Source: an uncultured virus (IMG/VR IMGVR_UViG_3300042350_005045)
Taxonomy: Duplodnaviria; Heunggongvirae; Uroviricota; Caudoviricetes
Direction: 5' to 3' (one strand)
Length of the DNA: 64,000 nucleotides
Virus record (IMG/VR): IMGVR_UViG_3300042350_005045
Each line of letters starts with the position of its first letter. Position 1 is the first letter of the stretch. Shown here in pieces: positions 32,957 to 53,541 of the stretch. The notes under the pieces are model-generated. The model did no database searches. It had not been told where the DNA came from and worked only from the letters and a program-made list of their open reading frames with translations. Made by a program: the position numbers and the translations under genes.

Positions 32957-33416
32957 ACCACATGCCTTGGTAGTAGTATTACACCAAGGCTTTTGTTTTT
33001 ATCGTGCAACAATACATTAGTTGCTACGATAAAGACATGATCATTGTTCCTGTATTTCGTAAACCCAAGGAATCTGAAATGGCTCTTTCCACTCAAGTCA
33101 AAGAAGCAGTCGATCAAGCTTCCAATTGCTTGCGCGACGCCCTTGCCTTTGCTGCACGCACCGAGCATCCGTTGACTGTTAACACGCTTTCAGATTTGCT
33201 GTGCCGCCTCGAATCACTGGAGCAGGTGGACGAATTGATGCAGCACTTCTCCAGCAAGAACGATGCTCAGTCCCCAAAGCGATGAAGAGCGTCTAGCTAA
33301 GTACTTTGCTCAACTAGGGCGAGAGTTTCCGTACATCACTAAACGTGATGTTGATGACGTTTTGTTGCGTCCATGTAAGTATCGTAAAATACTAGAAGAG
33401 AAAAAGAATAATCCTG

Positions 33417-33515
33417 ATGCCTCAGGATGATAGCAAGTATTCAAAACCTGAGTTACGCGAACAAATTAAAGATCGCGTGATGGCGGGTTCTAAAGGTGGT
33501 AAGCCTGGTCAGTGA
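33417..33515 (+). pseudogene. Truncated 5' copy of the small basic-protein (DUF5872-like) gene
   Basis: MPQDDSKYSKPELREQIKDRVMAGSKGGKPGQ, then TGA where the second copy has TGG. Confidence 0.8.
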
Positions 33516-33550
33516 TTTTGTGCTATAGTAAGAAAAGCACAAACCAACCA

Positions 33551-34159
33551 ATGCAAAAACTTTGCCGGGAATGCGGAACCAGAAAGCCGCATGAAAATTT
33601 TGGGAATAAAGGGTATAACTCAGCCGGAAATATAAAAAGAGACAGTGTATGCAAGGATTGCAGATCTTTGATCAACCGTCGATTTAGATTATTGTATGGA
33701 GCAGACGGTCAAAAACAATGCTCTAAATGTGCTCATTATTTAGATTGGGATTGCTTTAGAAGAAGAAAGCAAGACGGTAAATTATATCTTCATTCTTCAT
33801 GTAAAACTTGCAATAAGTTAAGTTGGGATAAATGGGTAGATAACAATAAAGAACATTATCAAAAAGTTAAAAAACAAGGGCAAGATTTATTACATCACAA
33901 TCACAAAAAATATGAGCGCAGAGGGATAACAAAAGAGCAATACGACATTGTGTTTGAGGCCCAAGAAGGTTTATGCGCAATTTGCCAAGAGCCTCCCAAG
34001 GATAAACAATCTTTAGCCATGGACCATAATCATCAAACCAATGAGTTCAGAGGTTTATTGTGCAAAGAGTGCAACAGAGCCCTAGGTTTATTTGGTGATA
34101 ATATAGATGTATTGACAAACGCAGTCACTTATCTTAAAGAACGAGGAAGTTATGGCTGA
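33551..34159 (+). CDS. Endonuclease VII-type homing endonuclease with N-terminal Zn-ribbon repeats
   Basis: GITKEQY...Q.GLCAIC...LAMDHNH.T...RGLLCKECNRALGLFGDN...AVTYL. Confidence 0.9.
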   Translation: MQKLCRECGTRKPHENFGNKGYNSAGNIKRDSVCKDCRSLINRRFRLLYGADGQKQCSKCAHYLDWDCFRRRKQDGKLYLHSSCKTCNKLSWDKWVDNNKEHYQKVKKQGQDLLHHNHKKYERRGITKEQYDIVFEAQEGLCAICQEPPKDKQSLAMDHNHQTNEFRGLLCKECNRALGLFGDNIDVLTNAVTYLKERGSYG

Positions 34160-34463
34160 AGACAAAAGCAAGTACACAAAACCAGACCTGCGTGAGCGTA
34201 TCAAAAACAAAGTTATGCGGGAAGGCCGTGGGGGTAAACCGGGAGAATGGTCGTAGCCGTAAGGCTAACTAATTATTTCGGCGCGTAAGGCTCAGCTTGT
34301 TGCAAGTGAGTACAAGGAAGCTGGTGGTGGATACAAAGGCGGTAAAGGTAAAAAACAAAAGTCCCTGGAGAAATGGGGCAAAGAAAAGTGGATGACAAAA
34401 GACGAATATGAGAAACGTGGTAAGGCTAAAGCTGCAGCTAAAAAATATAAGGAGAGCAAGTGA
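34152..34463 (+). CDS. Small basic protein (DUF5872-like) interrupted by a 27-nt stop-containing gap (34254-34280); candidate translational bypass
   Basis: MAEDKSKYTKPDLRERIKNKVMREGRGGKPGEWS | ARKAQLVASEYKEAGGGYKGG...; removing the gap restores GGKPGEWSARKAQ. Confidence 0.75.
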
Positions 34464-34669
34464 TGACAGACAAGGCTATACAAAAGGGATATACTAAGCG
34501 TTACTTACCAGAGTCTGCGTGGGCATCACTGTCTAAAGAAGAACGTCAAGAGACAGATCAAAAGAAAAGAGCTGGTAGTCGCGAAGGTAAACAATTTGTA
34601 CCTAACACAGATACCGCAAAAAAAGCAGGACGTGCTGCTCGTGTAGCAAAACGCTACAGGGATAAGTAG
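34460..34669 (+). CDS. Small basic protein
   Basis: RYLPESAWASLS...TDQKKRAGSREGKQFVPNT; coupled to the preceding stop codon. Confidence 0.75.
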   Translation: MMTDKAIQKGYTKRYLPESAWASLSKEERQETDQKKRAGSREGKQFVPNTDTAKKAGRAARVAKRYRDK

Positions 34670-34702
34670 TGCCTTTATACTTAACAAAGATTCCTTTTTA
34701 CC

Positions 34703-34852
34703 ATGGAAAAGAAAAAACCTGTACCTCCCAAGAAAGGTGCTGTACCCCCTAAGGGGAAAGGTGGTGCATCTGCTAAGCAGACCGAAGCACGTGACAAGTT
34801 TAAAGAGATGATTGCCAAGAAAAAAGAAGCGGCAGCCAAAAAGAAAAAGTGA
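34703..34852 (+). CDS. Very lysine-rich small protein
   Basis: MEKKKPVPPKKGAVPPKGKGG...KKKEAAAKKKK. Confidence 0.6.
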   Translation: MEKKKPVPPKKGAVPPKGKGGASAKQTEARDKFKEMIAKKKEAAAKKKK

Positions 34853-34965
34853 CGCCCGTGTTGTGATATCCTGACACGTGGAGCAATTCAGCTCTAGGGG
34901 TAATAGTCGAAACCCCTTTCACGCTACAAATACGTAGTGCTCAATAGAGCAAGGAAGGAAGCTAG

Positions 34966-34993
34966 GATCCCGGCATAACAACCGGGATTTTTT
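34966..34993 (+). terminator. Intrinsic terminator
   Basis: ATCCCGG-CATAACAA-CCGGGAT followed by a T-run. Confidence 0.7.
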
Positions 34994-35629
34994 GTGGCGT
35001 ATCTCAACCACAACCTACCTACCTTTACTTGCTATATACGCAACGAGTTTTTGTACAACCACAAGCAAGGCCATGGCGAGGTAACGCCTTGCGACGTCCA
35101 CTCCGTTGCATCCCTGGAGAAACGCGTCCCTTTGTTTGAGGTGTTTTTAGAGAATGGCGTCAACTGGACCCGTCGCCCAATCCATGCGTTGTGCTGGAAA
35201 CAAGATGCACCAGTCCCTGTGTTGAACGAGTGTATGTGGTGGGATTGCTTCTCCCCCTACATTGATGTACAGGTACGCTCACGTCTTGCCAACTTACGTG
35301 CAGAACTGATTAACTACAAAGGAGAACGCAATCAAGGCGTCTACATGTTTACTTTAGATTGGTCTTGGGAGTCCAAGTCAACTCTTAACACTAACTTCAG
35401 TGAAACGCCCGAGCATAAGTGTGCGCACTTCTTCCGCATGGATAACGGAAACTTCTACGCTTATCCCAATAACAAAATCATTTGGTACGATGATGCCTGG
35501 CTGCGCAACAGGATCGATAAGAACCCTGGATACGAAATTGACTTAAATGAGTACAGTGTTGAGAACTCACGCATGATTGAGACATCAGATCATTTCATGT
35601 ATGACACAACACCTTCGGTGTGTGTATAA
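34994..35629 (+). CDS. Conserved hypothetical phage protein
   Basis: 211 aa; YIRNEFLY...RRPIHAL...WDCFS...YMFTLDW...EHKCAH...GNFYAYPNN. Confidence 0.7.
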   Translation: MAYLNHNLPTFTCYIRNEFLYNHKQGHGEVTPCDVHSVASLEKRVPLFEVFLENGVNWTRRPIHALCWKQDAPVPVLNECMWWDCFSPYIDVQVRSRLANLRAELINYKGERNQGVYMFTLDWSWESKSTLNTNFSETPEHKCAHFFRMDNGNFYAYPNNKIIWYDDAWLRNRIDKNPGYEIDLNEYSVENSRMIETSDHFMYDTTPSVCV

Positions 35630-35939: not shown

Positions 35940-36011
35940 CGAGATGTAGCGCAGCGGTAGCGCATCTGTTTTGGGAACAGAAGGTCACAGGTTCGATCCC
36001 TGTCATCTCGA
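35940..36011 (+). tRNA. tRNA-Pro (TGG)
   Basis: Acceptor stem CGAGATG/CATCTCG, anticodon stem TCTGT/ACAGA with TGG at 35972-35974, T-loop TTCGATC. Confidence 0.95.
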
Positions 36012-53454: not shown

Positions 53455-53541
53455 TGGTGCAGACGGCGAGAGTCGAACTCGCAAGGGCAAATGCCCGACG
53501 CATTTTAAGTGCGTTACGTATACCTATTCCGTCACGTCTGC
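53455..53541 (-). tRNA. tRNA-Leu (TAA), CCA encoded
   Basis: Acceptor stem GCAGACG/CGTCTGC, anticodon arm ACGCA-CTTAAAA-TGCGT, long variable arm, TTCGACT T-loop, ACCA end. Confidence 0.95.

Follow-up and report, generated by a model that had tools for sequence, protein, structure and literature searches.

How can a nuclease gene that sits inside another gene, with neither an intron nor an intein around it, leave that gene in working order? The question is raised by a locus at 33417-34463 (plus strand, as for all features of the locus given below) in a 64,000-nt stretch of DNA from an uncultured virus (IMG/VR record IMGVR_UViG_3300042350_005045), hereafter the window. At this locus, a small phage gene is found in pieces: two versions of its 5' half flank a free-standing gene for an Endonuclease VII-type nuclease, and its 3' half follows after a short gap. 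The explanation that we favour, with a probability of roughly 0.78, is an intron-less and intein-less homing-endonuclease cassette, which is predicted to keep its target working by supplying a replacement 5' half and a ribosome hop.

A phage gene in pieces

The first 5' half (copy 1, 33417-33515) consists of 32 codons, MPQDDSKYSKPELREQIKDRVMAGSKGGKPGQ, and ends with a TGA (33513-33515) where intact relatives have the TGG codon for Trp. It is followed by a hairpin with an extended -10-like motif (33517-33543) and by the nuclease gene (33551-34159, with its stop codon at 34157-34159), which encodes 202 amino acids (aa). Within the 3' end of the nuclease gene lie a GAGGA ribosome-binding site (RBS; 34143-34147), read directly from the letters, and the ATG (34152) of the second 5' half. 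This copy 2 (34152-34253, with its TAG extending the open reading frame (ORF) to 34256) has 34 codons, MAEDKSKYTKPDLRERIKNKVMREGRGGKPGEWS, and ends in Gly-Glu-Trp-Ser. The two copies are diverged versions of one another. The last codon of copy 2, a TCG (34251-34253), is separated by a gap of 24 nt (34254-34277), or 27 nt when one TCG is counted as is the convention for T4, from another TCG (34278-34280) with which the native 3' half begins (34278-34463, 61 codons and a TGA, with no in-frame start codon near its beginning). An earlier note on this DNA had described each of these elements, i.e. a 5' copy cut at its Trp codon by TGA in place of TGG, a hairpin behind it, an endonuclease VII-type gene, a diverged second 5' copy whose RBS and ATG overlap the end of that gene, and a 27-nt gap before the 3' half, with both disruptions at one Trp-Ser codon pair. 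This description is accurate throughout.

The target gene, of 94 codons and unknown function, falls in phrog_17747 and has a weak, below cut-off match to DUF5872 (E 0.0061 for the 3' half alone and E 5.9e-05 for the intact protein of a relative, L006). Relatives with an uninterrupted allele, which the earlier note had proposed to look for in order to map the ends of the cassette, do exist. L006 aligns with the window over 33004-33514 and again from 34278 onwards, with a single base between the two blocks, which gives an uninterrupted 94-codon gene corresponding to copy 1 joined to the 3' half. In contigs from two lake-water runs, position 33514 is joined to 34284 via GTCTGCC, which gives an intact CAG TGG TCT GCC CGT allele. 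It follows from these joints that copy 1 is the resident 5' half and that, by alignment, an element of ~765 bp (33515-34280; the left end is ambiguous by 1-2 nt and the right end takes in the second TCG) is inserted at the Trp-Ser codons (33-34) of the target. Intact and cassette alleles share the same lake-water runs, with contig depths of 4.4 versus 9.4 in run X1 and 12.8 versus ~16-32 in run X2, and the polymorphism thus appears to be live in natural populations.

Relatives were collected from IMG/VR by two routes. The neighbouring ORF at 34994-35629, which was used as an anchor, has relatives in at least 596 stretches, of which 80 were fetched; 19 of these align with 33004-34993, and the whole arrangement is present in six loci besides the window. 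In addition, IMG/VR was scanned with two patterns. The first, in which the hairpin of the gap was obligatory, returned 39 stretches, and the second, in which Lys-x-Gly-Glu-Trp-TCG-TAG alone was obligatory, returned 55, namely the 39 shared with the first pattern, 12 family variants, one decayed example (L167) and three unrelated sequences. Pooling of the scans with the earlier loci and the window gave 98 records, which represent 43 distinct sequence contexts and 20 distinct gap sequences, and 89 distinct intact alleles formed the comparison set. Because the arrangement recurs in 43 distinct contexts on independent metagenome contigs, it is due neither to chance nor to mis-assembly, the latter having been named by the earlier note as a way in which it could be wrong. 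A 2451-nt contig from a public lake-water run, which may be the window's own source sample, also spans 33200-34282 with a single difference. Among GenBank phages, no match was found by megablast with 33000-35000 or by tblastn with the 3' half, and the relatives found by tblastn with the nuclease are all <60% identical.

Origins of the two 5' halves and movement of the cassette

The two 5' halves differ in their relationship to the surrounding phage. The window and L006 are 94% identical over the 400 nt to the left, 96% in copy 1 and 89% in the 3' half, whereas copy 2 shares 65% of its nucleotides with the 5' half of L006. In a tree built from the last 27 codons of the 5' halves (81 columns, weakly resolved), copy 1 of the window pairs with L006 (support 100/86), and the 24 rows of copy 1 are interspersed with those of intact alleles (17 label changes). 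In contrast, the 42 copy-2 rows form two cassette-specific clades (support 100/97 and 100/99). The phylogeny of the 5' copies that had been proposed beforehand therefore groups copy 1 with the host lineage, and these comparisons support the view that copy 1 is native and copy 2 foreign.

The cassette is also out of step with its flanks. Between the window and L010, the nuclease gene is 97.7% identical and copy 2 100% identical, whereas the native parts are much less so, with 79.8% for copy 1, 77.8% for the 3' half, 73% for the downstream flank and 57% for the upstream flank. A cassette identity of 97.7-100% set in flanks of 57-80% points to lateral transfer. In L121, the nuclease gene is 91% identical in nucleotides, and the copy 2 (74.5%) and 3' half (66%) next to it come from another lineage. 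In the most distant cassettes, L087 and L169, the nuclease is only ~50% identical in aa (49.5% in L087), and the gap is nearly unchanged. As far as can be read from these identities, the element is old and still moving, and its parts recombine. The element is present or absent at one and the same site among relatives and resembles its counterparts to a degree that its flanks do not, which is the behaviour of a homing cassette. The invasion by an endonuclease without intron or intein that had been postulated for this locus agrees with both the intact alleles and this mismatch.

A conserved gap and a predicted ribosome hop

The gap between the two TCG codons has the same design in nearly all contexts. 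The putative take-off site reads TGG TCG TAG in 43/43 contexts, an invariance to be read with the fact that both patterns required TCG-TAG. The TAG opens a 5-bp hairpin (34254-34267; UAGCC-GUAA-GGCUA in the window), recognised by fold and conservation, which closes a GNRA tetraloop. The hairpin TAGCC-NNNN-GGCTA is present in 42/43 contexts, and its loops (GTAA in 26, GTGA in 12, GGGA in two, GCAA in one and GAAA in one) are GNRA in every case. In the window, the predicted fold has an energy of -7.1 kcal/mol (z -2.34). Behind the hairpin lies a spacer (34268-34277 in the window, with extra stops, ACTAATTATT) that is 6-16 nt long, A/T-rich in all 20 gap sequences, and often composed of a TAAC repeat that places TAA in all frames. 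The putative landing codon that follows is TCG in 41 and TCT in two of the 43 contexts. A long-range helix around the gap (76-nt fold) was also considered; it scored z -0.29, was by eye not kept in L009, and was dropped.

The length of the gap varies, i.e. 20 nt (two contexts), 21 nt (13), 24 nt (15), 25 nt (7), 26 nt (5) and 30 nt (one), so that all three frame relations between 5' and 3' halves are present. The gaps of 21, 24 and 30 nt keep the frame but are interrupted by in-frame stops. The downstream frame of the 26-nt gaps is closed no more than 3 nt (0-3) from the landing codon, and in the 25-nt gaps a TGA stands immediately 5' of it. A plain -1 shift would be possible only in the two 20-nt contexts. 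A single rule is consistent with all variants, in which the ribosome would leave TCG and resume at the next TCG, and only such a predicted hop restores the frame throughout. In the window, its product would be a 94-aa protein, which aligns without gaps to the 94-aa protein of L006 (80/94 identical).

The codons around the hop set cassette alleles apart from intact ones. The Ser codon after Trp varies in the 89 intact alleles (TCT 35, TCC 15, TCA 14, AGT 12, AGC 8 and TCG 5). Since TCG occupies the landing position in 41/43 hop contexts versus 5/89 intact alleles, it is a feature of the cassette rather than of the target. Likewise, the residue before Trp is Glu in 43/43 hop contexts and Gln in 89/89 intact alleles, and the preceding Gly codon is GGA (32) or GGG (11) in the former versus mostly GGT (44) or GGC (17), with GGA (15) and GGG (11), in the latter. 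As a result of these Gly-Glu codons, a GGRGAR string resembling a Shine-Dalgarno (SD) sequence is found 5 nt before the take-off codon in 43/43 hop contexts (GGGAGAA at 34241-34247 in the window). Short-spaced SD-like elements stimulate RF2 frameshifting, and we infer that GGRGAR is a candidate stimulator of take-off. The same change may equally serve to alter the recognition site of the nuclease.

How the 3' half would be translated could also be explained without bypass. In the alternative that survives best, which we nonetheless regard as unlikely, the gene is simply split: a 34-aa peptide ends at the UAG, the 3' half is made by re-initiation or from an internal start, and the two products may come together in the way of nrdA and gp39/gp60. 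Nuclease-split genes that reassemble are indeed known, at least from the published account drawn on below, and the second cassette clade has an in-frame ATG 7 codons past the landing codon, in ORFs such as MLARAYKERGGGY... In the clade of the window, however, the first in-frame Met of the 3' half is far downstream. Moreover, neither the landing codon nor the sequence before it holds a conserved ATG, GTG or TTG, and the codon just 5' of the landing codon varies (ATT, ACT, ATA, AAT, TGA, CTA, CAA, TTA, TTT or TAT). A split gene would also leave two observations unexplained: the match between the TCG brought by the cassette and the take-off codon (41/43 versus 5/89 intact), and the selection on the six codons that lie between the landing codon and the ATG.

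The sequence of the gap offers a hint to its origin. A 9-nt direct repeat, CGTAAGGCT, occurs once in the gap hairpin (34258-34266) and once in the 3' half (34283-34291). The intact allele of the lake runs reads TGG TCT GCC CGT AAG GCT, and the beginning of the gap, TGG TCG TA GCC GTAAGGCT, differs from it by a 2-nt insertion and a 1-nt loss. Because of this repeat and near-match, the gap looks like a duplicated piece of target codons 35-38, in which a latent GCC/GGC pairing was, we infer, turned into a stop and a hairpin.

Selection on the cassette and loss of the nuclease

The ratio of nonsynonymous to synonymous polymorphism (pN/pS) is 0.25 for copy 2 (41 distinct sequences), 0.21 for the first 45 codons of the 3' half (43 sequences) and 0.16 for the nuclease (29 full-length copies). 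In 43/43 hop contexts, the 3' half has an open frame of 48-63 codons. Copy 1 is recognisable in 25 of the 31 contexts with a full nuclease gene and is unrecognisable or absent in the other six, with missing sequence accounting for one of these; an early TAG and a 1-nt deletion have broken it in L002, and it is also broken in L088. On this sequence evidence, copy 2, the 3' half and the nuclease are under purifying selection, while copy 1 decays.

The nuclease gene is full in 31 of the 43 contexts, truncated or frameshifted in seven, absent in three (L092, L107 and L171) and cut by the contig end in two. The remnants keep residues ~141-202, and thus retain the stretch with the RBS of copy 2. The three alleles without nuclease consist of the hop only, which lies at ~1500-1545 of each locus. 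Copy 1 is missing from them as well, and the 5' half that they have is cassette-type. The gene in L092 and L107 comes directly after its upstream neighbour, starting 8 nt before the end of that neighbour. A cassette-type 5' half in this position implies a deletion that took out both copy 1 and the nuclease, for which recombination between the copies is the simplest route. It was also observed that the hop-only alleles sit in a different phage lineage and that their upstream neighbour is peptidase-like. Relatives that have the gap without the nuclease, which the earlier note had expected to be missing if it was right, therefore do exist (three hop-only alleles and seven remnants); since their 5' halves are of the cassette type, they are read as cases of secondary loss, of the kind described for the MobA element. 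The ten contexts that keep the hop without a working nuclease argue for a hop that works and not against one.

This distribution bears on a further alternative, which is marginally less probable than the split gene. The target might be a dispensable gene that was killed by the insertion, with copy 2, the hairpin and the matched codons being duplicated leftovers that ride with a spreading nuclease, and with 3' halves that are still intact because the invasions are recent. The resemblance of the 5' part of the gap to target codons (CGTAAGGCT twice; GCC CGT AAG GCT in the intact allele) would be expected of such leftovers, most insertions do look recent, and L167 provides a decayed example. Yet the nuclease has diverged to 49.5% aa identity (L087) over a gap that has hardly changed, and copy 2 has a pN/pS of 0.25. 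The variation that the gap does show is of a particular kind, in that changes in the loop stay within GNRA and changes in length spare the landing codon. Furthermore, where the nuclease no longer works (ten contexts), the 3' ORF is still open and both copy 2 and the hop are retained, and in three of these cases copy 1 and the nuclease have been cleanly removed.

A model for the cassette and its weak points

Taken together, these findings agree with the proposal that a replacement 5' half plus a hop restores the target gene, given a foreign copy 2, matched codons, a stop, a GNRA hairpin and gaps of three frame classes that a predicted hop would reconcile. In the corresponding mechanism, which for its first steps follows the example of T4 MobA, the nuclease would cut cassette-free alleles near the Trp-Ser site, and the cassette would be copied in during repair, for which copy 1 on one side and the 3' half on the other would provide the homology. 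The native copy 1 is ended by the cassette-supplied stop and decays. Ribosomes would translate copy 2 up to Ser34 (TCG), with the UAG in the A site and, being the first codon of the 5-bp GNRA hairpin, opening that structure at take-off; the GGRGAR string 5 nt upstream may add forward strain. Peptidyl-tRNA-Ser would be released from its codon, the ribosome would slide over 20-30 nt (24 nt in the window), and the tRNA would re-pair at the landing TCG supplied by the cassette, with decoding restarting at GCG (Ala). The expected product is a 94-aa protein colinear with the intact one; this colinearity, the selection on both halves and the presence of three frame classes lend indirect support to a single polypeptide. 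In carriers, the gap and the Gln-to-Glu change would spoil the recognition site, again by analogy with T4 MobA. The intact-type site GGN CAR TGG TCN GCN CGN is absent at both junctions of the window.

Several observations weigh against this model. Bypassing is deduced from sequence alone. Both scans demanded TGGTCGTAG, and the invariance of TCG-TAG is partly a product of this collection. A looser scan, which allowed any take-off codon and any stop ahead of the hairpin top, set the scope: at least 42 of the matches listed have TCGTAG, the rest look by reading like chance (e.g. TCATAA and TCGCAG in unrelated ORFs), and no family member with a stop other than UAG is among the matches listed. The stem is invariant and thus provides no support by covariation, and the UAG itself determines three of the five pairs. 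The SD-like triplet that most MobA cassettes have 5-7 nt before landing is absent; the sole SD-like stretch in the gap (AAGG, GAGG or GGAGG) is inside the hairpin, 9-19 nt before the landing codon. In L124 (1516-1542), a full nuclease is accompanied by a 21-nt gap that is all A/T after TAGC and has no local hairpin. A longer fold, in which take-off and landing regions pair together, is predicted there (z -2.37), and L124 is either a different solution or a dead allele. L167 is decayed and has no landing codon. Repeated homing into fresh alleles could alone keep the 3' halves looking conserved, but the ten contexts without a working nuclease argue against such an inflation.

One more observation that does not favour a hop, namely that a simple scan scored the hairpin (34254-34267) and its T-rich tail as terminator-like, leads to the weakest alternative, an intrinsic terminator or attenuator, or a gap crossed by frameshifting, stop read-through or RNA processing, for which the -1 shift that would join the frames in two 20-nt contexts may also be cited, and which is very improbable given tails such as ACTAAT or AATAACT without a T run, in-frame stops in the 21-, 24- and 30-nt gaps, a closed downstream frame in the 25- and 26-nt gaps, no slippery heptamer, and a gap of 20-30 nt that is far below the size of a self-splicing intron and has no match in Rfam at E up to 1. 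As the next ORF also ends with a TAG (34667-34669), a reassigned code is not indicated.

The nuclease and the hairpin at the left end

The nuclease matches the Endonuclease_7 profile PF02945 (E 9.1e-23, 80.4 bits against a cut-off of 23.6, profile positions 6-81 of 82) and phrog_2633, 'endonuclease VII' (E 1.8e-33), in agreement with the family named in the earlier note. Its N-terminal part carries CxxC repeats and its C-terminal part a DHNH...CxxCN motif.

The hairpin between copy 1 and the nuclease gene (33517-33543) has an 8-bp stem with arms TTTGTGCT/AGCACAAA and a predicted energy of -8.4 kcal/mol (z -2.31). It holds TGCTATAGT (33521-33529), which resembles an extended -10 element. A hairpin is predicted in most of 30 distinct upstream contexts, with compensatory or wobble changes that were noted by reading (C-G for T-A in L013/L022, and a 15-bp stem in L095). 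By reading of the same list, TGNTANNNT is found at the same place in 30/30 upstream contexts. The TGCTATAGT site was not picked up by a two-hexamer promoter scan, and it is the conservation of TGNTANNNT on which its reading as a promoter is based. The left hairpin is probably a cassette-borne extended -10 promoter, or another expression control, for the nuclease and the repaired gene.

The source phage and the surroundings of the locus

The phage of the window encodes a D5-type primase, a family A polymerase, SSB, GP88, a lysin and an intein-bearing ThyX. The ThyX ORF (PF02511; 49994-51526, minus strand) is split by what looks like an intein (PF14890, below cut-off) that includes an HNH domain (PF01844); the phage would then contain another selfish nuclease, one that takes the intein route. 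Within the window, there is no second copy of the hairpin module or of the cassette nuclease. The phage also encodes tRNA-Pro(TGG) (35940-36011, plus strand) and tRNA-Leu(TAA) (53455-53541, minus strand), and there is no tRNA-Ser in the window.

Immediately downstream of the target, an ORF at 34460-34669 (plus strand, 68 aa, phrog_14910) looks by eye like the C-terminal part of longer target homologues (...GERYLPKKA...GKQFV...), and the target family seems to occur both fused and as two adjacent genes. The ORF that served as anchor (34994-35629, plus strand, 211 aa), with its relatives in at least 596 IMG/VR stretches, strongly matches phrog_3704, 'ferredoxin' (E 1.1e-48), and has no Pfam match.

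A scan of genome contigs found the hop on no more than two contigs, both short (2.9 and 2.7 kb) and both binned to metagenome-assembled genomes (MAGs) of Bacteroidota. These contigs, L256 and L257, are in MAG bins of Crocinitomicaceae and Bacteroidetes, which is a hint to the host or a binning artefact and is too weak for a host to be named. The RNA-library runs X15 and X20 contain short relatives of the nuclease gene (90-95% likeness), and no piece of the gap was found in them.

What a second hop would mean

If the proposed hop is real, it would be a second, independent natural example of the ribosome hop of T4 gene 60, and would help to separate general signals (stop, hairpin, matched codons and AU-rich spacer) from those specific to T4 (long stem, SD-like triplet near landing and gp60 peptide). 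The 20 natural gap variants would be a ready mutational series for the minimal requirements of hopping, and, being short (20-30 nt) and covering three frame relations, they could be used directly in reporters. Next to introns and inteins, the cassette would represent a third way for a selfish nuclease to spare its host gene. It would also be a warning for annotation, since a short ORF, a stop, a hairpin and an orphan ORF beside a nuclease may be one gene. We lean, with less confidence than for the cassette itself, towards a more general view in which bypassing is a portable minimal module, composed of a UAG, a 5-bp tetraloop hairpin, an A/T-rich spacer, matched codons and an upstream GGRGAR, that unrelated intron-less homing endonucleases use to immunise and yet preserve their target. 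Such a module would work over 20-30 nt with a Ser tRNA and with a nascent peptide unrelated to gp60, and would have been born of duplicated target codons (GCC CGT AAG GCT to TA-GCC-GTAAGGCT).

Comparison with known systems

Other proposed cases of bypassing or of genes split by nucleases in phages resemble the present one in part. The survey of MobA elements by Manning and Atkins (bioRxiv 10.1101/2022.08.31.505936) mentions nuclease-split genes whose pieces reassemble, such as nrdA of phage Aeh1, split by MobE. There too, according to the survey, a free-standing homing endonuclease lies inside an ORF and function is retained without intron or intein, but two tailed polypeptides reassemble and there is no coding gap. 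Here, in contrast, the upstream fragment is a decaying 32-aa remnant and the downstream ORF lacks its own start. In Streptomyces phages, candidate UUA-dependent bypassing in a terminase gene (PMC10732093) is likewise a phage bypass proposed outside the topoisomerases of T4-like phages. Its trigger is a rare UUA and its proposed role is regulatory, and the abstract makes no link to a homing endonuclease or to a stop-plus-hairpin module. In a full-text search of the literature, we found no report of a hop in this target family or with an Endonuclease VII-type nuclease.

The closest parallel is T4 gene 60. The MobA element is described as a nuclease, a homologous replacement region ('HomR') and a bypass cassette, and in the cases listed by the survey the target is always a topoisomerase gene of T4-like phages; in its words, the bypass cassette "remains unique" (bioRxiv 10.1101/2022.08.31.505936). 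The features that the survey gives for gene 60/MobA are largely those seen in the window. A free-standing nuclease of the HNH superfamily lies inside a gene without intron or intein, the element brings a replacement for the displaced target segment with a coding gap straight after it, and the downstream ORF starts within the end of the nuclease gene. The gap has matched codons, a UAG after take-off, a tetraloop hairpin and an AU-rich 3' part. As in our contexts, the MobA nuclease is often lost while the bypass is retained, and some MobA clades have GNRA loops and a 20-nt gap (bioRxiv 10.1101/2022.08.31.505936). The matched take-off and landing codons, the stop after take-off and the take-off stem-loop of a gene 60-type bypass are all found in the window. 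Take-off in this class is also primed by the nascent peptide, and on that side copy 2 has fixed differences from native 5' halves, with Glu in place of Gln before Trp (43/43 versus 0/89). The T4 gap (NC_000866) reads GGA TAGCC TTCG GGCTA TCTATAG...ATTATT GGA and that of the window TCG TAGCC GTAA GGCTA ACTA ATTATT TCG, i.e. the 5-bp stem core UAGCC/GGCUA and the last six bases before landing, ATTATT, are identical. Given that the UAG dictates three of the five stem pairs, the likeness to the T4 gap may equally well be due to convergence or to common descent.

The differences from T4 are equally clear, and the parallel to mobA/gene 60 with another nuclease family and another target that had been suggested for this locus is upheld on both counts. 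The target is not a topoisomerase (Topo2L, gene 39/60) but a 94-codon gene of unknown function, and its phage is not a T4-like myovirus but an uncultured lake phage with a D5-type primase and a family A polymerase. The nuclease is of the Endonuclease VII type (PF02945) with a C-terminal motif, and not a MobA-type HNH, GIY-YIG or VSR nuclease. It has no detectable similarity to the 272-aa MobA of phage HY03 by BLASTP (E 2.1), which itself has only a weak N-terminal hit to PF01844. Take-off is at a Ser codon, TCG, instead of Gly or Asp, the gap measures 20-30 nt versus ~50 and the stem 5 bp versus ~10, and a GGRGAR string upstream of take-off is found instead of an SD-like triplet 5-7 nt before landing. 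Finally, since the whole 5' half including its start is replaced, one full-length protein is predicted to be restored, unlike the split into two subunits of gp39/gp60. Compared with published bypass cassettes, the one described here is therefore new in its target, in its nuclease family, in its shorter gap and in its replacement of a whole 5' half.

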